Sequence record: NZ_CP082905.1
DNA: 64,000 nucleotides
Source of the DNA: a plasmid
Strand: one strand, 5' to 3'
Notes under the pieces: model-generated
The model's input: the letters and a program-made list of their open reading frames with translations, nothing else
Databases searched by the model: none
What the model was told of the DNA's origin: nothing
In this document: positions 1-45,089 of the stretch, piece by piece
Numbering within the stretch: the stretch's first letter is position 1
Layout: the number at the start of each line of letters is the position of its first letter
Position numbers and translations under genes: made by a program

Positions 1-60
1 AGCGCCGGCGCCAGCCGGCTGCAGGGGTTGACCTGGCCGTTGCCATCAGACCCTAGCCGG

Positions 61-160
61 CAGGCCCGGAGCGCCATGCGGTCCGGCGAAGCTTACCGGC
101 TCAGCCGGTTAGCGCAGTGGGGCTTGACGACCCGGCAACGCCGGGGAGCCGGAGGGGGCC
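61..160. repeat. Copy 1 of a ~100-bp direct repeat (copy 2 at 6097..6192); GC-rich with internal palindrome CCGGCTcAGCCGG; Frpo/ssi-like candidate
   Basis: Shared core GGTCCGGCGAAGCTTACCGGCTC.GCCGGTTAGC..AGTGGGGCT.GACGACCCG...GGGAGCCGGAGGGGGCC seen at both loci, ~85-90% identical by eye. Confidence 0.5.
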
Positions 161-495
161 ATCAGGATGTTGACGTTTATGACCCTGAGAGGAATAAAGC
201 TCGCGAAGCAGCTGCAGCACAGCAGAAGAAATAAAGGAATCCGTAGTCTGTAAACGAATCCATATTCTGCTTCTCAATCCCCCTTTTTTGTTCGCTGTGA
301 GAGCCAGTAAAACAGGTCGTTGTCTTTCACGGTCAGCAGTATGGGCTGATAGCCCGGCCGGAGAGCCTGCAGGGGAGCATGAGGACTTTATGACTGCTTT
401 CCTTCAGTTACCTGTTAATCGCCTGCAAAAGCCTGACTGGCTGCTGCTGTATAACTATGGAAAAATGGCGAATGGAATATTTGTGTAACGGAGGG

Positions 496-1710
496 ATGAT
501 TATGTCGGTTTTTCATAACTGGCTGTCTGGGATCGCAGGCGGTAATTATTTTGTTTACATCAAACGCCTTTCCGCCAATGATACAGGCGCAACGGGCGGT
601 CATCAGGTCGGGCTTTATATTCCTTCCGGTATCGTTGAAAAGCTGTTTCCGTCCATCAACCATACCCGGGAGCAGAACCCTTCTGTTTATCTCACAGCGC
701 ATGTTTCTTCCCATGATTGTCCTGACAGTGAGGCCCGGGCCATCTATTACAACAACCGTTTTTTTGACGGGACCCGGAATGAAAAACGTATCACACGCTG
801 GGGAAGAGGCAGTCCGCTGCAGAATCCTGAAAATACCGGCGCCCTGACAATACTGGCCTTCAGGCTCGACGAAGAGGGCAAGGACTGTTCGGCGGTGGAC
901 ATCTGGGTCTGCGCCAGCCCTGATGAAGAGGACGTTATCGAGACCGTTATCGGCGAAGTTATTCCCGGAACGCTTATCTCCGGGGCCGCAGGGCAAATAC
1001 TGGGCGGCCTGACTCTTCAGCATGCGCCTGTAAATCATAAATACGCTATTCCTGAAGACTGGCAGCAACGCTTTCCGTCCGGAAATGAAATTATTCAGTA
1101 TGCCGCCGGCCATTACGTAAAAAAATCTGATGACCCGGATGAGCAGCTTATTGACCGTCGGCGCGTCGAGTACGACATCTTTCTGCTGGTAGAGGAATTA
1201 CATGTTCTGGACATCATCCGGAAGGGATTTGGCTCTGTAGATGAGTTTATTGCGCTGGCCAACTCCGTCAGTAACCGGCGTAAATCCCGGGCCGGAAAGT
1301 CACTGGAGCTGCACCTGGAGAACCTCTTCATTGAGCACGGGCTGCGGCACTTTGCCACGCAGGCAGTCACGGAAGGCAATAAAAAACCAGATTTCCTGTT
1401 CCCTTCAGCAGAGGCTTACCACGACGTTGAGTTTCCCGTGGAAAACCTGCGCATGCTGGCGGTCAAGACCACCTGTAAAGACCGCTGGCGCCAGATACTG
1501 AACGAAGCAGATAAAATCCCGCAGGTGCACTTGTTTACGCTGCAGGAAGGGGTGTCTCATACACAGTACAGGGAAATGCAGGAGGCGGGGGTCAGGCTGG
1601 TCGTGCCGTCACCGCTGCACAAAAAATACCCGGAAGCGGTAAGGGCTGAATTAATGACGCTGGGTGCGTTCATTGCGGAGCTTACAGGGCTTTACGCAGA
1701 CCTTCCGTAG
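496..1710 (+). CDS. ecoRIIR: Type IIE restriction endonuclease, EcoRII family
   Basis: N-terminus MSVFHNWL...YFVYIKRLSANDTGATGGHQVGLYIPS matches the EcoRII effector-binding domain I recall; 404 aa from ATG 496; RBS GGAGGG just upstream; convergent with the methylase as in EcoRII. Confidence 0.85.
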   Translation: MIMSVFHNWLSGIAGGNYFVYIKRLSANDTGATGGHQVGLYIPSGIVEKLFPSINHTREQNPSVYLTAHVSSHDCPDSEARAIYYNNRFFDGTRNEKRITRWGRGSPLQNPENTGALTILAFRLDEEGKDCSAVDIWVCASPDEEDVIETVIGEVIPGTLISGAAGQILGGLTLQHAPVNHKYAIPEDWQQRFPSGNEIIQYAAGHYVKKSDDPDEQLIDRRRVEYDIFLLVEELHVLDIIRKGFGSVDEFIALANSVSNRRKSRAGKSLELHLENLFIEHGLRHFATQAVTEGNKKPDFLFPSAEAYHDVEFPVENLRMLAVKTTCKDRWRQILNEADKIPQVHLFTLQEGVSHTQYREMQEAGVRLVVPSPLHKKYPEAVRAELMTLGAFIAELTGLYADLP

Positions 1711-1744
1711 GTAAACTCCCGGCATATGATGCCGGGAGTTTCAC

Positions 1745-3178
1745 TCAGGCCTGTTCAGCCTTATCAGCCTCGGCAGAAACCGCTTTCAGGATGTAAGGTT
1801 CCAGCAGTCTGGCAACGGCTTCAAATACCGGCACCACAACAGAGTTACCGAACTGCCGGTATGACTGCGTGTCAGAAACCGGAATACGGAAGGGTTTGCC
1901 ATCTGGCTTTTCAAAGCCCATCAGGCGTGCACACTCACGGGGGGTCAGCCTGCGCGGACGACGCGCCTGGTTTTCTTCGTTCACAAAGTCTGTTTCTCCC
2001 GTAGCCATATCCCAGCCACGGTCTATCAGAATTTCAGATCCGTCTTTGTGATAGCGGGCAGAAAGCGTACGGGCAACGCTTTCCTTGTTTTCAGGATTAA
2101 CGAGGCCAAAACCGAAGCCGTTTCCCTTAGCCGCATGCTTTTTGGCATAGTTATAGAGATACTCCCAGAGTTTCGGCGTCAGGATATATTTACTGTCAAC
2201 CACAGGTTCCAGCAGTTCGCCAAATGACGGGCGTTGTGCCGGGTAAAAACGACTGACGTCGCGCAGGGTAAAGCCCTTGTGAATATTCAGGTCGCGGCGG
2301 AAACCGACCAGAACGATACGTTCCCGGTGCTGGGGCAGGAAGTGCTTTCCGTCGATGACTTTGGGATCGCTTTTGCCTGCATCAGCCGCATCCGCAACTT
2401 CATAGCCCAGCTCGTCAAGCGTTTCCATGATGACTTTAAAGGTTTTGCCCTTGTCATGACTTTTAAGGTTTTTGACGTTTTCCAGCACAAAAATGGCCGG
2501 CTTTTTGGCCCGAATAATACGCGCCACGTCAAAGAAAAGTGTTCCCTGCGCCTCACATTCAAAACCATGCGCACGACCGAGCGAGTTTTTCTTGCTTACG
2601 CCAGCAAGGCTGAACGGCTGGCAGGGAAAGCCGGCCAGAAGCACATCATGATCCGGCACGTGCTCATCAATGTAAGCATAGGCATCGGTTTCTGACACTT
2701 CAGGTTTGTCACTGAGTGTGACTTCCCGGATATCGAGATTGAATTTGTGCGCCTGCTCGTCATTAAACCAGTTGGCTTTATACGTGCGCACCGCCTCTTT
2801 ATTCCACTCGCTAGTAAAAACGCACTGTCCACCAATCGCCTCAAAACCTTTTCGTATACCGCCAATGCCGGCAAACAGATCAATGAACCGGAAAGCATAG
2901 TCCGGGTGATGCGCAGGCGGTTCCGGCAGCATTTTCCGCAGAAGCGCTTCTTCAGCTGATGTCAGCGATTTAGGTGGGCACTTACCATTAATCCAGCGAT
3001 TGAGCGTTTCCCGGCTCCACTCGTTTTTGCCGACTTTTCTCAGCAGCTCAGCCACGTACTTCTGGTCATAGATTTCCAGAACCTGCGCAATCAGTTTTTT
3101 ATCATTTTCCTGCCGCTGTTTTTCTTCTGCTTCCGCTTTATTAAGCAGATCCTGCGCCAGTAGTTCAAATTCAGACAT
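1745..3178 (-). CDS. ecoRIIM: DNA (cytosine-5)-methyltransferase, M.EcoRII/Dcm-like
   Basis: C5-MTase motifs: FAGIGG (motif I), GFPCQPFS (PCQ motif IV), [13 protein letters not shown] (motif X); internal Met [12 protein letters not shown] gives 477 aa matching M.EcoRII length. Confidence 0.9.
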
Positions 3179-3534
3179 AACGCCTCCATTGGGTCTTATG
3201 AGTGAAACTCTATCACTCATCTGACCCAGAGTGAATTATTTTATCTGGTTATTTAAACAGTACCTGTTAGTACAACTGCCGGCTTTTCTTTTAGACCGTG
3301 AGGACAGACCGTATTAAAACCCCATTCCCCATGCAGGGAGAGAAAATTCCTCCCCCCTCTTTTCCGCCCGGCTTCCCCTGAAGTTATCGCTTCCGGACAC
3401 TATTCATTCAGCTTATTTTTGATATACAAAAAAAGACGATGCGGCGAAGCATCGTCAAAACGAATTTACTATCAATGTTTATCCCTGGTGAAAGACGCTC
3501 AGTTTATCGTTATATCACTGGCAGACCCGCCCGT

Positions 3535-3948
3535 TTACTCACTGCAGCGCTGGCGCCAGACCCATGTCATATCAAGCAGATCATTCACCCTTACTCCCCG
3601 GCGTCGCCAGCGGGCATACCACCGCCGGTATGTGCTGACTGACTGGCTGGCCAGTGCCGTTTCTGCCTCCCGGATAAGTTTTTCCTGCGCCTCAGCCTGG
3701 CGCTGCAGGGCCAGCGCAGAACGTCCGGGCATCGCTTCTCCGGGCCGCAGGACTGTGTCAGACAGACCTGGCTCCGGGAGCGTCGGCGCGGGGCTGACAT
3801 CACCATTATCAGCTTTACCTGAATTCAAAACCGGCGCGAACGTATGTACAGGACATCGTGCCACGTCGTACAGATGGCAACGTTTTTGCGGCTGCGGGTA
3901 AACAGGTGGAACCATTAATGGCGTCATCATTACTGTATTCATACGCAT
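3535..3948 (-). CDS. Hypothetical protein (137 aa), last gene of the minus-strand ssb block
   Basis: ORF only; overlaps upstream ORF end by 10 nt; GC-rich region, so the + strand ORF 3419..3901 is an alternative. Confidence 0.25.
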   Translation of the reverse strand: MRMNTVMMTPLMVPPVYPQPQKRCHLYDVARCPVHTFAPVLNSGKADNGDVSPAPTLPEPGLSDTVLRPGEAMPGRSALALQRQAEAQEKLIREAETALASQSVSTYRRWYARWRRRGVRVNDLLDMTWVWRQRCSE

Positions 3949-4481
3949 CCCCCTTTTCTGCCCAGCACCGCCACGATTTCCGCCGGCGTGATACCCGCTG
4001 ACACCATTTCCTCGATGCGCGTCAGCAGCCGGCCGATGGTTTCCGGCTCAAACCGTTCGGTATTCAGAACGTACAGCCCGGTGTGATCGGGATTTATCCA
4101 GATAAGGCCGTGCCAGAACGGAGACTCGTTGCCCGGGCTCAGGATATCGAGCGTGACGTGACGGTTTTTCCGGTGGGTCAGGCGCAGGTGAACCGGGAAC
4201 ACCCCGCCCCACTCCTCCCGGCACTCGCAGTCAGTGAGCCAGCTGTCACTGAGCGGTAAGGCATGGAGTACGGCGCCGCACAGACGGCGGCGGAACTCCT
4301 CGCCGCGTGTGCTGTAGGCCTCAAAATCGCCCGGCGAAAAGGCGTGCAGCCGTTGCAGCGTCACGCTCTCATCGCGCGTCATCTCACTGCCGCTGCAGCT
4401 GCGGAAACCGACCGACCTGCGGCCGTAGTACGCGTGAGTCTTGCCGTTACGGATTTTTTCTTTAGACTGGATAGCTGACAT
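3939..4481 (-). CDS. Hypothetical leading-region protein (180 aa)
   Basis: Long ORF co-oriented with ssb and the DUF905 gene; no family recognised (not PsiB/PsiA by sequence). Confidence 0.5.
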   Translation of the reverse strand: MSAIQSKEKIRNGKTHAYYGRRSVGFRSCSGSEMTRDESVTLQRLHAFSPGDFEAYSTRGEEFRRRLCGAVLHALPLSDSWLTDCECREEWGGVFPVHLRLTHRKNRHVTLDILSPGNESPFWHGLIWINPDHTGLYVLNTERFEPETIGRLLTRIEEMVSAGITPAEIVAVLGRKGGCV

Positions 4482-4547
4482 ATCGGATTCCTCATAATTT
4501 GATTGTCACGCCCTGCGCGGAGTTACCGCTCCGTTCAGGGCACCTTC

Positions 4548-4778
4548 TTAATGCGTTTTTGTGCCGTTCAGCTCGATATAAAGTCCGAGCCAGAACCCGG
4601 CCTCCGGCTCAAAATTGAATGCCTGCCAGAGCATATTTCCCCCTCTGCTGCGTACGACCAGACGAAAGTGCGAGCCCTGATCGTCTTCAATCGTGACATT
4701 GCTGTATGTACGGGCGACAGCTTCTGCCTGCTCCCGGCTAAAAGGTCCGTTCGGAAGTAATGGTGTGTGACTGGTCAT
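4548..4778 (-). CDS. DUF905 family protein (YkfF-like, 76 aa)
   Basis: [34 protein letters not shown]...[11 protein letters not shown] resembles CP4-6 YkfF as I recall it. Confidence 0.6.
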
Positions 4779-4834
4779 GGTATTCTCCGGTAGTACGCCT
4801 GCCCTGCAGCCGCAGGTCAGCGGCTCAGTGTCAT

Positions 4835-5380
4835 TCAGAACGGGATATCATCGTCAAAATCTGCTGGCGGCTGGTTGCCCTGCGGCGGTGCCTGGGGGTC
4901 AGGCTGCGGCTGTGCCGCACCGCGTCCGCCCCGGCTACCTTTGCCACCTTTGCCACCATTACCTGACGCTGCCGGCGGCTGCTGAGGCTGGCCGCTGAAC
5001 TGCTGTCCGGTCTGTTCGCCTGTTCCGCTGCCACGCCCGCCCAGCATCTGCATAGTGCCGCCGACGTTGACCACCACTTCCGTGGTGTAGCGATCCTGCC
5101 CACTCTGGTCCTGCCATTTCCGTGTCTGCAGCGCGCCCTCGATATACACCTGAGCGCCTTTACGCAGAAACTCACCGGCCACTTCAGCCAGCTTTCCGAA
5201 CAGCACCACGCGATGCCATTCCGTTTTTTCTCTGGTTTCCCCGGTCTGCTTGTCGCGCCAGGATTCAGAGGTGGCCAGCGTGATGTTCGCGACCGCGCCG
5301 CCGTTCGGCATGTAGCGCACCTCGGGGTCCTGCCCCAGATTGCCGACCAGAATGACCTTGTTAACGCCCCGTGCAGCCAT
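4835..5380 (-). CDS. ssb: Plasmid single-stranded DNA-binding protein
   Basis: [48 protein letters not shown]...; Gly/Gln-rich tail ending DDDIPF (canonical SSB C-terminus); start taken at internal Met. Confidence 0.92.
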
Positions 5381-6096
5381 AACGTTTCTCCTCATGCAGT
5401 TGGTTTTTTAACCACGTCACCCGTTGAGTTTCGGGAGCCGCGGTGTTGACGTTTTGTGGAAATCGGCTGGTTTTTTTCTCCGGTATTCACTTCACCCGTT
5501 TGAGATCCTTCGCCGCGAGGGCGTAAACCAGCGCGGGTGACGGCAGACGTCCGGGGCGACGGGGAAATTTATTTCTGGTCTAACGGAGTGGCCGGAAAAA
5601 AATTTTCACGGCGTTCATTTCACCCTGGACGACCACGGCGCCTGTGCTTGTCTCAGCCCCGGCGAAAGGACTTAAACCGGTGAACGGCGTAGGAAAAGCA
5701 CAGCACGATGCAGCAGCAACGACGGCTGAGCGGCAGCGAAACGGCGTTGCGCCTCAGAGCGACGGCGGATTCTGGCCGTCGCGGTTCGCGCCAGCCCTGG
5801 GGCTGGCTGCAGCCCCTGCTTTGCCCTGCGGTGTTTGTGTTTTAGTCTCTGTTTTTTCTGTGGTTTTGGACGACTGTTGTTCAGCCGTCACCATGCCGGC
5901 GCACGCGCCGCGGGCGCGGGCAGACGTAAATGAGAAAAGCGGGGTGACAGAGTTTCAGAACAAATTCCTTATGCGACAGCTCCCTGAAAACGAACAGTGA
6001 TCATACACAACGGGTTTCGCTTAAAAACCCTGCGCCGGCGTTTTCAGAGGAGCGCCAGCACGATTTCTGCTTTCGGCCCTCAGACCCCAGCCGACA

Positions 6097-6192
6097 GGCC
6101 CGGAACGCGTCCCCGGCGGTCCGGCGAAGCTTACCGGCTCTGCCGGTTAGCTGAGTGGGGCTGACGACCCGACAGGGGAGCCGGAGGGGGCC
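6097..6192. repeat. Copy 2 of the Frpo/ssi-like repeat, upstream of umuD; contains a DnaA-box-like TTATCCACA at 6189..6197
   Basis: Direct repeat of 61..160. Confidence 0.5.
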
Positions 6193-6394
6193 CTTATCCA
6201 CATCTACGCTGCACATCCGGCGCATAAAGCTGTGGATAAACAGCTGCAGCCCCTGCCCGCTGACGCCTGAAAAGCACTGGTCAATAAATAACCTGCCATT
6301 TCGCTGTAAAACTTTATAAATCAATGATCTTCTTTTTTCGCCATGCAGGTGTGATTCACTGTGTCTTGCACAGCCCTGAAAGCCAGTTAATACT

Positions 6395-6410
6395 ACTGTA
6401 AATACATACA
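6395..6410. promoter_or_regulatory. LexA (SOS) box CTGT-N8-ACAG upstream of umuD
   Basis: taCTGTAAATACATACAGcg about 25 bp upstream of the umuD start. Confidence 0.65.
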
Positions 6411-6433
6411 GCGATTTAACAGGGACTTTTGCT

Positions 6434-6874
6434 ATGTTTAACGCCTTTGAGTTGATGCACCCGGCGGACAATCCGCCGCCCAGCTTCAGGCCTCTTTTCC
6501 TGGAACGTGTACCCTGCGGGTTTCCCTCTCCCTGCCAGGACTATGCGGAACAGGAGCTCGATCTGAACGAATATCTTATAGCCCACCGGGCAAGCACCTT
6601 CTTCCTGCGCGCGCAGGGCAACAGCATGCAGGACATCGGCCTTTATGACGGCGACCTGCTTATTGTCGATCGTTCCCTCAGACCAGAGCACGGCGACATT
6701 GTCATCGCGGAGCTTTACGGCGAATTCACGGTAAAGCGGCTGCTGCTTTCCCCGAAGGGTCCCGTACTCCAGCCCATGAACCCCGCCTACCCCGTTATCA
6801 TTCCCGATCCGGATACGCTGGAAATTTTCGGCGTCGTTGTGCATTTCGTTCATACCGCGCGCAGGAGAAACTGA
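6434..6874 (+). CDS. umuD: UmuD-like translesion polymerase subunit (S24 LexA-type peptidase)
   Basis: FPSPCQDYAEQELDLNEYLI...GNSMQDIGLYDGDLLIVDRS...VKRL: the Ser-Lys dyad region typical of UmuD/MucA. Confidence 0.85.
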   Translation: MFNAFELMHPADNPPPSFRPLFLERVPCGFPSPCQDYAEQELDLNEYLIAHRASTFFLRAQGNSMQDIGLYDGDLLIVDRSLRPEHGDIVIAELYGEFTVKRLLLSPKGPVLQPMNPAYPVIIPDPDTLEIFGVVVHFVHTARRRN

Positions 6875-6875
6875 C

Positions 6876-6977
6876 ATGTTCGGTTTAATTGACGTGAACA
6901 GCTTTTACGCCAGTGCAGAGAAGGTCTTCCGGCCTGACCTGAAAAATGCACCAGTGGCCATCCTGTCGAATAATGAT
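6876..6977 (+). pseudogene. umuC: umuC 5' fragment (first ~34 codons), reading into unrelated sequence after SNND
   Basis: MFGLIDVNSFYASAEKVFRPDL..AILSNND matches the UmuC/MucB N-terminus; diverges then stops (LSGEKS*); TGA/ATG coupling with umuD. Confidence 0.75.
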
Positions 6978-7241
6978 CTGAGTGGTGAGAAAAGTTAGTT
7001 AATTTGATGCTGTTCATGTCAGCAGCTCTAGAGAGTTTTTTGGTCTTCTATGAGCGAAAAGCGGACATTGAGTGCTCGAAGATTGATTGCATCCTTCTGG
7101 CTTACCTGTGCAGGCATACCGTAAACGAATTGTCACAAAATGAGCTACTGCCAGATAAACACATCTGAATTAACGAATATATGATTGACTCACAAATTGC
7201 AGGCAGTGAGAATGTCTTCAATTCCGGACTCAGGAGTCATC

Positions 7242-7595
7242 ATGCCTCAATTTCAGCCTCTTCAGCTTTTCAAAAATCTCTCTGATGAAACACGACTCAG
7301 TCTGGTGCTGCTGTTGCGCGAAAAAGGAGAGCTTTGCGTCTGTGAACTCACGTCAATGCTGAAAGAAAGTCAGCCTAAAATTTCCCGGCATCTGGCGTTA
7401 CTCAGAGACGCCGGTCTGCTTATCGACAGGCGAGACGGCAAGTGGGTTTATTATCGGTTGTCACCACACATGCCCGCCTGGGCTGCTGCGGTAATTGAGC
7501 AGGCTTACCTGTGTCAGCGCGATGACATTCTGCAACTCAGCCAGCAGGCTGAAAGGAATAACGCGACCACCAACGGCAAGCCTGTCTGCATTTGA
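7242..7595 (+). CDS. arsR: Arsenical resistance operon repressor ArsR
   Basis: [52 protein letters not shown] (ELCVCEL metal-binding site plus HTH). Confidence 0.88.
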
Positions 7596-7683
7596 AATTT
7601 ACCCAAACACATATGATTTTACATACTTGTTAGCAGGGCTGTCTTTAGTCCCGTTTACAGGCTTTATATCCAAAGGAGAAAGT

Positions 7684-8967
7684 ATGTTTCTGGCAGGCGC
7701 TATATTCGTCCTGACACTGGTGCTGGTTATCTGGCAGCCAAAGGGACTCAGTATTGGCTGGAGTGCAGTTATCGGGGCCGCGCTGGCGCTGCTGACCGGC
7801 GTGGTGCATATCGGTGATATTCCGGCCGTCTGGCAGATTGTCTGGAACGCCACGGCCACGTTTATCGCGGTTATTATCATCAGCCTGCTGCTTGATGAGT
7901 CTGGCTTTTTTGAGTGGGCTGCACTGCACGTTTCCCGCTGGGGAGGCGGTAAAGGCAGGCTGCTGTTCACGTATATTGTTCTGCTGGGTGCGGCAGTGGC
8001 GGCCCTGTTTGCCAATGACGGGGCGGCACTTATCCTGACGCCTATTGTCATCGCCATGCTACTGGCGCTGGACTTCAGCCCCGGCGCCACACTGGCGTTT
8101 GTGATGGCGGCAGGCTTTATCGCGGACACATCCAGCCTGCCGCTCATCGTATCGAACCTGGTCAACATCGTGACGGCGGACTTTTTTAAGCTGGGGTTCA
8201 GCGAATATGCGTCTGTCATGGTGCCGGTAAATATCGCGTCCGTGGCGGCCACGCTGGTTATGCTTCACCTCTTTTTCCGTAAAGACCTCCCGATCACTTA
8301 TGACCTGGCGAAACTGAAGGTGCCACGGGAAGCCATTCGAGACATGCGAACCTTTAAAGCCGGATGGCTGGTCCTGCTCCTGCTGCTGGCCGGTTTTTTT
8401 GCCCTGGAGCCGCTCGGCGTTCCGGTCAGTCTGGTGGCAGCGGTGGCGGCATTTATTCTGTGGCTTGTTGCCCGGAAAGGGCACGTAATTGACACCCGTA
8501 AAGTGCTGAAAGGCGCGCCCTGGCAGATCGTCATCTTCTCGCTGGGTATGTATCTCGTAGTATATGGCCTGCGCAACGCCGGACTGACGGATTACCTCTC
8601 AGCCATCCTGAACCGGTTTGCAGAACACGGCGTCTGGAGCGCCACACTCGGTACCGGTTTTTTGACGGCCTTTTTGTCATCGGTGATGAACAACATGCCT
8701 ACCGTCCTGGTCGGTGCCCTGTCCATTGATGGCAGCACGGCTCAGGGCGCGGTGAAGGAGGCGATGATTTACGCCAACATCATCGGCTGCGATCTCGGCC
8801 CCAAAATCACACCCATCGGCAGCCTGGCGACCCTGCTGTGGCTGCACGTGCTGGCGCAGAAAAACATTACCGTCAGCTGGGGCTACTACTTCCGCGTGGG
8901 CATTGTGATGACCCTGCCGGTGCTTTTTGTGACGCTGGCCGCGCTGGCCCTGCGCCTGTCTGTTTAA
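7684..8967 (+). CDS. arsB: Arsenite/antimonite efflux pump ArsB
   Basis: 428 aa; [11 protein letters not shown]...[39 protein letters not shown] closely matches ArsB; RBS AAAGGAGAA upstream of ATG 7684. Confidence 0.95.
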
Positions 8968-9016
8968 CCTTAACCCCGGGGCTGCGTCTGCGCAGCTCCG
9001 TAACGGAGTACCGTTT

Positions 9017-14116: not shown

Positions 14117-15106
14117 GTGAACACAAAAACACATTCCACTTCGGCTTTGCTGCTGGCCGGGCAGTGGCTTAAAATTCTTTCGAATTTAGGAAGAGCCAGC
14201 TCAACTATTAAAGCCTATCGAAGTGCCCTGACGCATTTTTTTGCCTTCTGTGAAATACACGATATTGCTCCTGAAAGGGCTTCCTTTGAAGACATTGCAG
14301 GATATATCCGCCCTCAGCTCCCTGATATGCCGTCACCCGTTGCCAGCGCCACACTCCAGTTGCGCATTTCAGCTCTTCGCCTCTGGTATGACTTTCTGAT
14401 CTACCAGGATATTTGCCGTCTCAACCCGTTACCCCGTTCGGGTTTGCCTGGTGCCATTTATACCGGGCGAGGCCTGATCCCACGTATCACCCGCCTCCCC
14501 GTTATTCCCGATGACGGGCAGTGGCTCAGGTTCCTGAAACACGTTTCTGCCGCGTCCCTGCGTGACCGGCTGATGCTTGCTCTGGCGTATTATGGCGCGC
14601 TCCGGCGTACGGAAGTGACGGCTCTGAGGCTTGAGGACATTGATCTGGCTCACCGCCTGATACGCATCCGCGCAGAGACGACGAAAAACAGACGGGAAAG
14701 AATGGTCTGCTACAGCGCTGACGTTGCGCGGGTACTGGCAAATCATTTCCAACAGCTACGGCTGGCAGGCTGGTCAGGCGGTGCTCTGTTCCGTTCCGCC
14801 TCTGACCGTAATTACGGCGCTCCGCTCTCGTTCTGGAGCTGGAGTAAAACCGTGCGGAAATGGGCGACAGAGACTGATCAGCCAGACATCACCACGCATA
14901 CTTTTCGTCACCTCCGGCTGACGCACCTGGCACGGGCCGGATGGAAACTGCATGAACTGGCTACGTATGCAGGGCACAGGGACCCGCGTACCACACAAAT
15001 TTATATTCATCTGTCGGGAACGGATATGGCTGCCCGCATGGCTGCTGCCGTCGCTGAAACCGACCGGAAGATCGCAGAGCTTATCTTTCAGGCGGGGGCA
15101 GTGTGA
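14117..15106 (+). CDS. Tyrosine-type site-specific recombinase (329 aa)
   Basis: C-terminal catalytic region HTFRHLRLTHLARAGWKLHELATYAGHRDPRTTQIYIH (R..H..Y); preceded by a ~390-bp AT-rich non-coding tract. Confidence 0.85.
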   Translation: MNTKTHSTSALLLAGQWLKILSNLGRASSTIKAYRSALTHFFAFCEIHDIAPERASFEDIAGYIRPQLPDMPSPVASATLQLRISALRLWYDFLIYQDICRLNPLPRSGLPGAIYTGRGLIPRITRLPVIPDDGQWLRFLKHVSAASLRDRLMLALAYYGALRRTEVTALRLEDIDLAHRLIRIRAETTKNRRERMVCYSADVARVLANHFQQLRLAGWSGGALFRSASDRNYGAPLSFWSWSKTVRKWATETDQPDITTHTFRHLRLTHLARAGWKLHELATYAGHRDPRTTQIYIHLSGTDMAARMAAAVAETDRKIAELIFQAGAV

Positions 15107-17232
15107 TGAAAGCAGAAACAGGAATTCATAACATTTATGTCCCTTTCAGTCGTTCAGACTATCAGCTGAATAATGTGTTAAACACTGAAGAGCGCGAGGC
15201 GTTAAGCACCGGGCACAAACGTACCTCTGCTCTGAGCCAGCAAGGTCCGCTGTCATCTTTACTGCGGCCTCTTCAGGATATTGCCGACCGCAGCGGCACA
15301 AGTGACAGACTCGTCAGGATTATCATTTCTGCCGTTCTGGCGGAAATACACCGGACAGGGCAACCCTGCTGGCTGTGGGGATCAGAAAAGTGGCTGACGC
15401 TGTGCCAGCAGCACCGTTCAGGCAGGCCCCTTATTGCGGCTTTTGCCTTCCATCTTGGCCCGTTCCCCTCACCGTTCGATCTGCCGCATCATGGTGCCCC
15501 GTCGCTGTACGCCTGTGCCATCTATGGCCGGGAATTTTTCACACAGGAACTTAACCGGCTGACGGAAGCTCTGGTTTCACTGGGATACAAACGCAGGAAC
15601 CAGAAAAATCAGCTGTCAGCCCTGCTGGGCATACTGATGATGATGAACAGTAATCCTCAGCTCGAAAGCTTCACGACTGATCTCCTGTGGCGCGCGCAGA
15701 AATATCACGATCGCGGGATCGCAAAGACAGTGGGCAGAGTTTCGCATGCGCTTGCCGCAATGGGCATCATCAAAAGCCCCGTGCGTATGCGCAATTACCA
15801 GGAGTGGCGCGAAAAACCGACAGAAGACATCGCACTGGCCTGGGTAGCATGGTGCCGGCGGTGGAGGGAAACCTCAGTGCTTCGTCCCCGATCCAGAGAG
15901 AGCCAGTACAGTTTTATCCTCCGCTGCGGCCTGTGGCTCGCCCGGGAGCATCCGGAAATACGCGAGCCGTCCGACTGGACAATGGAGATCTGCGCAAGCT
16001 TCATTGCAACAGTCGGAAGAATGAAAGTCGATGAACTTTCTCTGGGCACGGCACAGGGGATGCGCCGGTCTTCCCGTTCCGGAGAACCCATGCTGCCAAA
16101 CTCCCGCGCCGGTTTTGTGTATGCCGTCCGCCGCTTTATGATTGACTACGAGAGCTGGGGATGGGGACGGCTGAAATTCAGTCCGTCCCGCCATCTCTCC
16201 ACGCCTGATACGCCGCTGTTTCGTCAGGGCGTCAACCCCCGGGTTATTGATGATCCGGTCTGGCTGAAACTGGTATGGGCAAGTCTGAACCTGCGTCAGG
16301 AAGATTTGCTGAGTGAAATTCATTATCCCCTGTCTATGCTGCAGGCTATGGCGGTCATCTGGACGCATGCAGGGCTGCGCCAGAATGAGCTGATGCGCCT
16401 GACCGCAGGCTGCATCATTCCACAATCGGAAGATATTAACCGGGACGACGGCAGTACCATTCCTGCCGGGACCCTTTGCTACCTTAATGTGCCAGCTGGC
16501 AAGACCTCTAAAGCCTTTGTTAAACCGGTTTCTGCTGCAGTGAAAAAGTATGTCGATATCTGGCTGGCAGAGCGACCAGAAGAGCAGGCAGCGCTGACGG
16601 ATGAACGCACCGGTGAAAAGGTCCGTTTCCTGTTTCAGTACCGGGGCAAAGCCGTGGGAAGAGATATAATAAACCGCACCGTTATTCCGGTTCTCTGTGC
16701 CAGAGCGGGGATGCCGGAGGAAGACAGCCGGGGTCCCATTACCAGCCACCGGGGGCGAGCATCGGCCGTGACAGCACTGGCCAGTGTTCCTCAGGGCATG
16801 TCGCTATACGAGCTGATGCAGTGGTCAGGTCACTCTTCGCCGCAGTCTACGATGCATTATATTCGTATACGGCCGACACAGCTGGCAGCCTCTTTTGTGA
16901 AGGCGGACCGGGTCGCGCATATGATGAGCGTGCTGATTGACCATGATCCGCTTGCCGTCAGCCTCACCGGTCCGGCAATATATTATGATCTCGGCGATTC
17001 GTACTGTATGAATCCTTTCTGGAGCAACTGCCCGCACCGGATGGCGTGCATCGGTTGTGACTTTAATCTGCCAAAACAGAGTGCAAGAGGACTTCTGCTC
17101 GAAAGTAAGGCGTCCGTAAAAAGATATCTGGAGGAGGTGCCGCTGACGGTTGACGAGAGAGCCATCGTGGAGGGAGATACGGAAAAACTGGAGGCTGCTC
17201 TGAGAAAAAGCAGTAAGGTTCTCATCCGGTAA
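15103..17232 (+). CDS. Large tyrosine-type recombinase (709 aa) with a long N-terminal extension; translationally coupled to the upstream recombinase
   Basis: C-terminus ...SHRGRASAVTALAS...LMQWSGHSSPQSTMHYIRI (catalytic HxxR...Y); ATGA overlap with the 329-aa recombinase; pair arrangement reminiscent of Tn554 TnpA/TnpB. Confidence 0.8.
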   Translation: MMKAETGIHNIYVPFSRSDYQLNNVLNTEEREALSTGHKRTSALSQQGPLSSLLRPLQDIADRSGTSDRLVRIIISAVLAEIHRTGQPCWLWGSEKWLTLCQQHRSGRPLIAAFAFHLGPFPSPFDLPHHGAPSLYACAIYGREFFTQELNRLTEALVSLGYKRRNQKNQLSALLGILMMMNSNPQLESFTTDLLWRAQKYHDRGIAKTVGRVSHALAAMGIIKSPVRMRNYQEWREKPTEDIALAWVAWCRRWRETSVLRPRSRESQYSFILRCGLWLAREHPEIREPSDWTMEICASFIATVGRMKVDELSLGTAQGMRRSSRSGEPMLPNSRAGFVYAVRRFMIDYESWGWGRLKFSPSRHLSTPDTPLFRQGVNPRVIDDPVWLKLVWASLNLRQEDLLSEIHYPLSMLQAMAVIWTHAGLRQNELMRLTAGCIIPQSEDINRDDGSTIPAGTLCYLNVPAGKTSKAFVKPVSAAVKKYVDIWLAERPEEQAALTDERTGEKVRFLFQYRGKAVGRDIINRTVIPVLCARAGMPEEDSRGPITSHRGRASAVTALASVPQGMSLYELMQWSGHSSPQSTMHYIRIRPTQLAASFVKADRVAHMMSVLIDHDPLAVSLTGPAIYYDLGDSYCMNPFWSNCPHRMACIGCDFNLPKQSARGLLLESKASVKRYLEEVPLTVDERAIVEGDTEKLEAALRKSSKVLIR

Positions 17233-25323: not shown

Positions 25324-25649
25324 CAGCAAATGGAAGCTGTCCAGTCGCAGCTTCCGGAAAGTACCGCCTGTCTCATTCCAGCCGGTGATTTTTGATACAT
25401 ACACCCGGCGTCAGGGTGGTAAAAATCACCGTTCTTATCCGGACTGCCCGCTATACAGCCAGAAGGGAAATGCCGCGTCCCTGTTCAGGCTTTTTTAAAC
25501 TGACATCCCCCTGTATTAAATATCGTAAAAACCCGGGCGTGTTTTTGCAGCCGGTCGGTACATATGCCCTCTGCCTTATCCACAAAAACGGGGGATAAGT
25601 CCTGTATAATTAATGTACAAATTTGTAGTGTACATCCTCTCAGAAAGAT

Positions 25650-44511: not shown

Positions 44512-45089
44512 AGGAAGGTCACCTCAGCGGCACGCTGCCGCTCGGTCAGGCCGCAGGTTTTCCGGCTCTGGACGTACCGGCAGATTTAATCAGTCGCCTG
44601 AACCGGAGTTTTGCCCGTGAGCTTGGCGACTGGCGGCGCGGACAGAAAGTCATGTTGATTGCCGAAACCGATCCGCCGGTGAAAAAATTCAGACAGCGTG
44701 ACGGGAAACCTGTGCCGTACAGCACCTGCAGGGTTATCGATGCGGCCCTGATGACCGTCAGTGCCCGGTTTATTCCTCTCGACTCCTCCTGGGAGGGCGT
44801 GATCGAAGAAAAACTCTGGCAGGAGAAGCGGCATTTCATCAAGCCTCTGCGTTATGACGGCGAGGCGGACGTTTTCCCTGATTTTTTGCTGAAAGATGTG
44901 CCGGGCAGGGAGATTGTGCCGCTCGAAGTATTTGGTATGAACACGCCTGATTATCTCGCGCGTAAGGCGGTCAAGCTTGCACATTATCGCGAAGAATATG
45001 GCGAGGGGAACTGGTGGTGCTGGGACGCTTACACGGCAGGTGCTGCTAATAACATCCCGCCGTTTCCTGATAGCCAGCTCATAAAATAA
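44512..45089 (+). pseudogene. 5'-truncated gene for a PD-(D/E)xK-like hypothetical protein; reading frame is open back through the Tn3 IR
   Basis: Frame open from 44484 with no start; ...ADVFPDFLLKDVPGREIVPLEVFGMNTPDYLARKAVK has a PD...E.K-like spacing. Confidence 0.35.

Follow-up and report, generated by a model that had tools for sequence, protein, structure and literature searches.

The 64,000-nucleotide (nt) stretch of plasmid record NZ_CP082905.1 analysed here (the window) carries two copies, A and B, of a GC-rich repeat. We find that these copies belong to a family of modules of ~130 nt which have a four-way-junction-like fold with strong covariation support. The module lies on the transferred (T) strand in the leading region of F-like conjugative plasmids, beside single-strand promoters of the Frpo type, and its structure is under strong purifying selection. 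Structure, strand, position and promoter association are all matters of direct observation. To account for them we tentatively favour, at chances that fall a little short of even, the explanation that the module is a cis-acting folded single-stranded DNA (ssDNA) element whose role is to shield or regulate the adjacent single-strand promoter.

The two copies in the window are direct repeats on the same strand according to both gapped alignment and the covariance model, which matches copy A at 40-169 (147 bits, E 4e-33) and copy B at 6074-6201 (111 bits). An initial annotation, made from the sequence alone, had already noticed a GC-rich repeat in two copies with internal hairpins. That observation holds, although the copies are longer than was supposed (42-168 and 6076-6192 on the + strand, instead of 61-160 and 6097-6192), and covariation shows the hairpins to be evolutionarily conserved. 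The estimated identity of ~85-90% was likewise close: 104 of 113 aligned bases agree (92%), or ~85% once the three internal indels (+2, +2/-1 and -5 nt) are counted. One 23-mer is common to both copies and occurs exactly twice in the window (0.00 expected). GC content is 0.72 and 0.74 in the copies, as against 0.53 in the window, and the covariance model finds no further copy on either strand of the 64 kb. A coding function was considered and rejected. Copy A falls within a + strand open reading frame (ORF) at 28-234, whose frame is broken by indels of 1, 4 and 5 nt when the copies are compared, and ORFs that cross the module on the minus strand terminate in differing frames; CAG/GAG repeats account for those indels of the purine-rich right flank that keep the frame.

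In order to define the fold, a structural alignment and covariance model were built from 95 non-redundant copies. An outer stem, P1, encloses hairpins H1-H3 and is followed by hairpin H4 and an unpaired G-rich tail. Across the five helices 98.3% of cells are paired, compared with 89.0% in shuffled alignments and at most 56% when the partners are slid against each other. Compensatory changes occur in 14 of the 30 pairs, giving 202 doubly changed cells where 55.6 are expected, and none of 500 shuffles equalled the real alignment on any of five measures. Moreover, in an unbiased mutual-information scan the top-ranked column pairs were exactly the predicted Watson-Crick partners, as exemplified by pairs 55-66 (G:C in 51 copies, C:G in 44), 51-70 (A:T 59, G:C 38) and 34-117 (C:G 78, A:T 14, T:A 5). 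H3 has been swapped outright for different hairpins in Klebsiella and Serratia with its flanking clamps unchanged. An additional outer-stem pair proposed by eye, 35:116, was dropped because one side varies freely. For copy B, the minimum-free-energy and centroid folds of the ssDNA agree with the covariance-model structure.

Loop sequences vary freely across the family and the positions of the mismatches stay fixed. The A.G opposition in P1 is kept in 96 of 98 copies, and a non-Watson-Crick position in H2 and a T.T opposition in H3 are also conserved. Among the unpaired segments, the motifs CATCAGAC, GGCGGAGCTT, TTAGCG, GACGAC and GGAGCCGRAGG are conserved, and GGAGCCGGAGG is a further unpaired motif; motifs and mismatches alike persist even in copies that lie outside the search pattern. 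Taken together, the conserved unpaired motifs and mismatches suggest specific recognition by a protein. The helices themselves are only 3-9 bp long, the predicted folding free energy (dG) is about -34 kcal/mol with a z score of -1.75, and folding energy alone (z about -1.7) is insufficient to single the module out.

Since covariation alone cannot separate RNA from ssDNA, we considered whether the module acts as RNA, either as a plus-sense small or antisense RNA or as a structured 3' or 5' untranslated element of leading-region mRNAs. A TTGAC conserved just 5' of the module and the + strand hairpin with a T-run that follows some copies would agree with this explanation, but overall we judge it improbable. 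We found no sigma-70-like -35/-10 hexamer pair in or beside either copy on either strand, and an Rfam scan (cmscan) of positions 1-9000 at E<=1 gave no match on either copy. Terminator-like signals on the + strand are present in only 25 of 132 right flanks, and a plus-sense small RNA with its own terminator was set aside on that count. Read in the mRNA sense, the module precedes the Frpo start, often following the terminator of the previous gene (31 of 132), and so falls mostly outside transcripts. The excess of G.T over A.C oppositions also disfavours the mRNA-sense strand.

The strand on which the module lies acquires meaning from the polarity of transfer. The window belongs to an F-like (MOBF/MPF_F) plasmid of the Pantoea type, whose nearest relatives are Pantoea plasmids typed MOBF. 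At 51-64 kb the - strand encodes TraH, TraG, TraD and a TrwC/TraI relaxase, and the same strand carries ssb, the DUF905 gene, psiB and a 137-aa ORF. Comparison of gene order with the F plasmid, in which leading genes and tra genes share one direction, identifies the + strand as the T-strand and places the origin of transfer (oriT) beyond the left window edge once the circle is closed. Because the + strand is the T-strand, a T-strand element acts leftward. The complete relative NZ_CP090210 confirms this polarity: an F-type nic motif (TTTGCGAGTGGTGT|GT) lies on the + strand at ~41.98 kb and is followed by a leading region of ~20 kb in which all annotated genes but one are on the - strand; this region ends at ssb, with umuD divergent beyond it. 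The possibility that the module is itself a relaxase or oriT-like site was rejected, since the oriT of this relative is AT-rich, has the F-type nic motif and gives no match to the model.

We next consider how the module is distributed. BLAST placed it at 306 sites in 166 plasmid records, mostly of conjugative plasmids and mainly from Klebsiella, Pantoea, Serratia, Yersinia and Erwinia, with almost all matches in unannotated intergenic DNA. A motif scan of one genome per species gave at least 80 loci in 11 genera on plasmid-sized contigs, and the covariance model recognized 141 copies in the fetched loci besides the two in the window. The clade that has the module comprises F-like conjugative plasmids of Pantoea, Erwinia, Mixta, Klebsiella, Raoultella, Serratia, Yersinia, Rahnella and relatives; the model has no match in the leading region of F itself (F 50-68 kb). 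Only six of 5,426 complete Escherichia coli genomes contain any match, mostly on plasmids, which disposes of the concern that the repeat is a fragment of some element common on chromosomes. The set of 142 copies from 11 genera includes 39 multi-copy loci, in 38 of which every copy is on the same strand. In CP090210, the one complete plasmid mapped, all nine copies are on the T-strand within the leading region at 44.6-62.1 kb, roughly one per transcription unit, and none is found in the other ~70 kb.

This distribution bears on the idea that the repeat does nothing for the plasmid and is either a REP-like repeat or a selfish miniature transposable element. Such an element would be short, GC-rich and multi-copy, as the module is, and the 8-mer GCCATCAG stands at both ends of Pantoea-type copies. 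We nevertheless give this idea hardly any credence, given that the module has no terminal inverted repeats, keeps a single orientation, is confined to the leading region in CP090210, is nearly absent from E. coli genomes and has a structure under strong purifying selection. In other copies one end 8-mer does not follow the other, and the proposal that the flanking GCC(A/C)TCAG 8-mers are a target-site duplication was not upheld there. Two records deserve separate mention. The sole locus with copies on opposite strands, scaffold3 of Klebsiella pneumoniae ATCC 13883 (5961-6100 on the - strand and 7783-7923 on the + strand), may represent an inversion or the junction of two leading regions. A Klebsiella-type copy (124 bits) on a 1300-bp contig labelled Streptomyces luteosporeus is most likely contamination of an actinomycete assembly.

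The position of the module with respect to genes and promoters is equally regular. With copies oriented on the + strand, the median distance is 328 nt leftward to the next - strand ATG and 259 nt rightward to the previous - strand stop codon. Of 117 left (gene-side) flanks, 86 show homology to Frpo, Frpo' or Frpo* sequences; of 132 right flanks, none does. Conversely, 93 of the 103 assessable Frpo-type regions have the module on their T-strand 3' side, a proportion that is biased upward because the loci were gathered via the module itself. The right-side neighbours of the module vary among relatives, and the Frpo-type hairpin on its other side is constant. Whole control regions fold as a large promoter hairpin by the gene, with the module as a separate 3' domain. 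The order of the unit along the T-strand from 5' to 3' is gene or genes, Frpo-type promoter hairpin, module. This is the placement expected of a roadblock, T-strand 3' of a single-strand promoter.

Further elements flank the Pantoea-type copies. Many have a purine-rich tract with CAG/GAG repeats to the right (for example at 44760-44960 of one Pantoea-type locus, L003, and at 170-240 of the window), followed in some by a + strand hairpin and T-run (ACCGGTGCGTCAGCACCGGTTTTT). On the gene side there are two more covarying hairpins (GGCCAC...GTGGCC; GCGGGC...GCCCGC or GCCGGC...GCCGGC). These extra elements extend the repeated unit to as much as ~400-700 nt in Pantoea-type plasmids.

The occurrence of one copy per cassette in a single orientation, with gene content between copies highly variable among plasmids, could also indicate a recombination module, in which the copies mark boundaries for cassette swaps in the leading region, homologous or structure-specific, and the structure is the site of a recombinase, in loose analogy to integron attC. 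In attC sites, too, mismatches are conserved on one strand, and the copies in the window bracket a block that includes an acquired EcoRII cassette. We think it improbable that the module serves this purpose. Homologous recombination needs no compensatory evolution of stems, and no dedicated recombinase is consistently adjacent, the tyrosine-recombinase pair found near umuD looking like a separate insertion. Moreover, the boundaries of the EcoRII cassette (423 and 3264) differ from the module ends, and the tight, one-sided link to Frpo-type promoters would be left unexplained.

To locate the single-strand promoter of the window, we used the Frpo/ssi references and candidate lists of Samuel et al. 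2024 (PMC11541004, supplementary file 4). When five F and ColIb references, among them F ssiD and ColIb ssi1-3, were compared with the window by blastn, only 5401-5759 matched, and the repeat matched none of them. This region is 81% identical to F ssiD over 97 nt and 70% over 155 nt; it matches Frpo'1 (72% over 381 nt, E 1e-43) and Frpo'5 (E 8e-52). Judged by this homology, 5401-5759, which directly precedes ssb and went unremarked in the initial annotation, is the predicted true Frpo of the window and would drive leftward transcription into ssb, with copy B a separate module ~320 nt further upstream. Two products of the ssb operon that had been listed as of unknown function can be given names. 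The 180-aa protein is PsiB, and the 137-aa protein, whose residues 81-134 match PsiA positions 136-188 in BLASTP, weakly and far below family cut-offs, appears to be a short, diverged PsiA relative; its ORF is unannotated in the closest plasmid. Between the DUF905 gene and psiB, at 4477-4548 on the + strand and antisense to the 5' region of psiB, the Rfam scan of 1-9000 has its only match, which is FinP-like and sub-threshold (29.8 bits against a gathering threshold of 45, E 0.013).

The identification of this promoter affects the original view of the repeat, namely that it is a Frpo-like single-strand promoter firing towards EcoRII and umuD. The repeat does fold and does lie in the leading region, and it shares one property of Frpo, being on the T-strand upstream of genes that have the T-strand as template. 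It is also contained in two published candidates of low certainty. The match is confined to the far ends of these 400-nt extracts, 'Frpo*4' and 'Frpo*5', which start at the gene start and run outward and hence merely include the module at their distal end. We conclude that in Frpo*4 and Frpo*5 (Samuel et al. 2024) the distal 100-135 nt are module and not promoter, so the boundaries of these published candidates need correction, and similarity searches seeded with either will pick up module copies. Several other results make it very improbable that the repeat is itself a promoter. It has no homology to the Frpo of F or ColIb, the real Frpo being at 5401-5759, and the -35/-10 elements that were to be sought in its folded stem are absent, the helices being of at most 9 bp and without a hexamer pair. 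The constancy of the Frpo-type hairpin on the opposite side, where rightward neighbours vary, also disagrees with firing to the right.

Nor can the genes to which the two copies had been assigned be their targets. EcoRII R and umuD have the same sense as the T-strand, so neither mRNA can be made from it, and umuD has its own, ordinary LexA-box promoter at 6394-6413. Copy A, thought to precede and serve EcoRII, belongs instead to a unit beyond the left window edge, because its Frpo*4 homology runs to position 2; copy B, thought to serve umuDC, belongs to the ssb/psiB unit. Of umuDC itself, umuD is present and umuC is only a 34-codon stub. What survives of the initial annotation is an element of the leading region that is T-strand-specific, folds and is tied to single-strand promoters; the equation with Frpo or ssi does not survive, for want of homology and hexamers.

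How, then, might the module act? According to the explanation that we favour, it would fold on the T-strand after entry into the recipient and, probably together with a bound host or plasmid factor, guard the adjacent single-strand promoter in cis. Complementary-strand synthesis and read-through RNA polymerase would both come from the T-strand 3' side and so pass the module before they reach the promoter hairpin. A delay or block at the module could keep the promoter single-stranded, and hence active, for longer. Copy B would guard the unit formed by Frpo, ssb, DUF905, psiB and the psiA-like gene, and copy A the unit just beyond the left window edge. There is a precedent in F, where ssp2, a GC-rich T-strand structure upstream of Frpo2, makes complementary-strand synthesis stall and raises PsiB output twofold (bioRxiv 10.64898/2026.01.09.698686). 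It is this precedent, along with the approach of both polymerases from the T-strand 3' side, that leads us to favour a guarding or regulatory role. The low stability of the module and its conserved unpaired motifs imply that any barrier is probably factor-assisted.

A number of points weigh against this explanation. The ssp2 region is far more stable (dG -111 kcal/mol, z -6.6) than the module, and the two are not homologous: the model has no match across F 50-68 kb, and the ssp2-like reference Frpo'4 has none in the window. A simple barrier would need no conserved unpaired sequence, and the bound factor is putative. Opposed bases lean only mildly towards the + (T) strand as the folded strand (G.T 38, A.C 16, with one false pair dropped), a weak bias that is not corrected for kinship. 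The manner in which the loci were gathered inflates the association with promoters, and the proposed effects on transcription, priming and stalling are suggested by comparison of sequences and folds. It is possible, if rather unlikely in our estimation, that the module represents a new class of cis-regulatory ssDNA which is aptamer-like, is read sequence-specifically by a host or plasmid protein and stands upstream of essentially every single-strand promoter in a large F-like clade. It might then set the window of early (zygotic) expression, for instance through a delay of read-through or of complementary-strand synthesis.

The main competing explanation is that the module is an ssi site, at which the folded T-strand would load a primase or primosome, dependent on PriA, DnaG or DnaA, for priming of the complementary strand. 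A multi-hairpin ssDNA of ~130 nt whose unpaired motifs and mismatches suggest specific protein recognition would suit such a role. Copy B also adjoins a hairpin-forming pair of perfect DnaA boxes, presumably resembling an A site. In addition, Frpo is reported to have been first isolated as an ssi (Masai and Arai 1997). Several results nevertheless lead us to regard the explanation as unlikely. With filters off, the best match of the covariance model in G4 and phiX174 scored 5.2 bits (E 1.6), and none fell at the annotated G4 origin (3970-3998). Confinement of the CP090210 copies to the leading region would be odd for a general priming signal of the lagging type. A primer laid down at the module would be extended through the adjacent promoter hairpin, shutting the promoter off, and the DnaA-box pair accompanies only 5 of 138 copies.

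Table 1. Coordinates of the module copies, the Frpo homologue and neighbouring features in the window
Feature	Position	Strand	Basis or remark
Module copy A	42..168	+	covariance model; helices backed by covariation
Copy A, P1	48-49,51-52 / 120-121,123-124	+	A.G at 50.122
Copy A, H1	56-58/63-65	+	
Copy A, H2	66-70,72-74 / 78-80,82-86	+	mismatch 71.81
Copy A, H3	91-93,95-100 / 104-109,111-113	+	T.T 94.110
Copy A, H4	131-136/140-145	+	
Copy A, conserved unpaired tail GGAGCCGGAGGGGGCC	146-161	+	
Copy A, gene-side extension	1..41	+	cut by window edge
Hairpin GCCGGC-GCCA-GCCGGC	4-19	+	in copy A gene-side extension
Conserved TTGACC	28-33	+	in copy A gene-side extension
Module copy B	6076..6192	+	covariance model
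Copy B, P1	6082-6083,6085-6086 / 6158-6159,6161-6162	+	
Copy B, H1	6090-6092/6097-6099	+	
Copy B, H2	6100-6104,6106-6108 / 6116-6118,6120-6124	+	
Copy B, H3	6129-6131,6133-6138 / 6142-6147,6149-6151	+	
Copy B, H4	6168-6170/6175-6177	+	shortened
Copy B, tail	6178-6192	+	
Frpo (ssp1-type) single-strand promoter homologue	5401..5759	+ (T-strand sense)	blastn
Core promoter hairpin of Frpo homologue	~5548-5631		fold z -2.2
Early operon, presumably served by Frpo and copy B	3535..5395	-	Pfam, NCBIfam, BLASTP, terminator scan
ssb	4835-5395	-	
DUF905 gene	4548-4778	-	
psiB (180-aa ORF)	3939-4481	-	Pfam E 8e-63
Short PsiA-like gene (137-aa ORF)	3535-3948	-	overlaps psiB stop; BLASTP to PsiA
Intrinsic terminator of psiB operon	3456-3435	-	
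EcoRII restriction-modification cassette	423..3264	R +, M -	R 457-1710, M 1745-3220; Pfam
DnaA boxes, perfect, inverted: TTATCCACA, TGTGGATAA	6194-6202, 6231-6239		28-nt spacer; adjoin copy B
LexA box TACTGTAAATACATACAG	6394-6411	+	sequence read directly
umuD	6434-6874	+	Pfam
umuC remnant, 34 codons	from 6876, stop 6996-6998	+	translation, BLASTP

The DnaA boxes beside copy B lie outside the module family. A DnaA-box-like sequence had been ascribed to the second copy; the box exists, but directly after copy B and not within it, and its inverted partner at 6231-6239 had been overlooked. The pair occurs in different plasmids, always next to copies of the ssb-proximal type, with the boxes conserved and the spacer variable. 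In ssDNA folds it forms a 9-bp hairpin containing a duplex DnaA box, a layout that we take to be that of the ABC-primosome 'A site'; this box-in-stem feature is thus shown by the adjoining 6194-6239, the module itself having no DnaA box. Four more perfect TTATCCACA boxes are found at 25576, 36767, 48400 and 59564, so that the window has six where 0.34 are expected by shuffling.

The EcoRII cassette is inserted into the spacer that separates copy A from the psiB-operon terminator. The block is 86-91% identical to sequence in many unrelated plasmids, and it is without functional link to the module. Its methylase gene has the T-strand as template, like other leading-region genes, and its endonuclease gene can be expressed only once the second strand has been made. 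Genes oriented in this way would tend to give a new host methylation ahead of restriction; the region upstream of the methylase gene gave no Frpo-type match. On the other side of copy B, the umuC stub is followed by arsB (Pfam), and homology to the closest plasmid stops at 6976, within the umuC remnant. A tyrosine recombinase gene pair lies directly after umuD in two relatives and at 14117-17232, beyond the ars genes, in the window. This arrangement suggests that a recombinase-borne cargo element was inserted into umuC.

How plasmids express their anti-SOS and anti-defence genes during the first minutes in a new cell is under active study. To our knowledge, only promoter hairpins (Frpo/ssp) and one roadblock (F ssp2) have been known so far as cis-acting elements of this early expression. 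In the loci examined, the module adds a second, separately folding component beside ~90% of Frpo-type promoters; the plasmids concerned come from clinical as well as plant-associated Enterobacterales and include Klebsiella IncF plasmids. With its helices, conserved mismatches and unpaired motifs defined, it offers a precise target for mutational dissection, and its sequence can serve to recognize leading regions and to tell the polarity of the T-strand. The searchable literature has no description of its sequence or of such an element beyond its incidental inclusion at the ends of the two candidate extracts (Samuel et al. 2024), so the module is apparently an undescribed member of the leading-region T-strand cis-elements.

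Comparison with known systems places the module among several kinds of element. Like the primosome and primase signals of the ssi type (G4 oric, the phiX174 n'-pas and the DnaA-box hairpin of the ABC primosome), it is a multi-hairpin ssDNA structure of ~100-140 nt on one strand; unlike them, it lacks an internal DnaA box, occurs only in the leading region and gives no model match in G4 or phiX174. In 1997, Delver and Belogurov reportedly described IncN 'CUP' (conserved-upstream) repeats in the leading region of pKM101, which are said to be non-coding, to precede successive genes and to mark cassette boundaries. As described, the CUP repeats and the module are alike as repeated non-coding units before leading-region genes. 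Homology between them seems unlikely, as the 166 plasmid records matched by BLAST do not include the abundant IncN plasmids.

The closest likenesses are with the single-strand promoters and their roadblock. Frpo/ssi elements (F Frpo1/2, that is ssp1a/b, and ColIb-P9 ssi1-3) and the module are non-coding, repeated and on the T-strand of the leading region, upstream of ssb, psiB and anti-defence genes. Frpo/ssi are active only on the T-strand and depend on structure, and by analogy the module may be of the same kind. It differs from them in having no homology, in being a bundle of short helices and not one long hairpin, in lacking -35, -10 and UP elements, in its position distal to the Frpo-type hairpin and in its absence from F. 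An apparent resemblance to the distal end of ColIb ssi units (a shared GGGTTGAC...GCCATCAG...GCGCAGTGG) was rejected, as it scored ~2 standard deviations above shuffles and below the best shuffle. The F ssp2 roadblock (Wen et al. 2025; Fraikin et al. 2026 preprint) resembles the module in being GC-rich (~70%), in forming on the T-strand and in standing 3' of a Frpo promoter on that strand. However, ssp2 is itself a promoter and forms one very stable hairpin of ~240 nt, to which the far less stable module is not homologous. Furthermore, ssp2 occurs once per leading region, whereas the module occurs once per cassette and carries conserved unpaired motifs.

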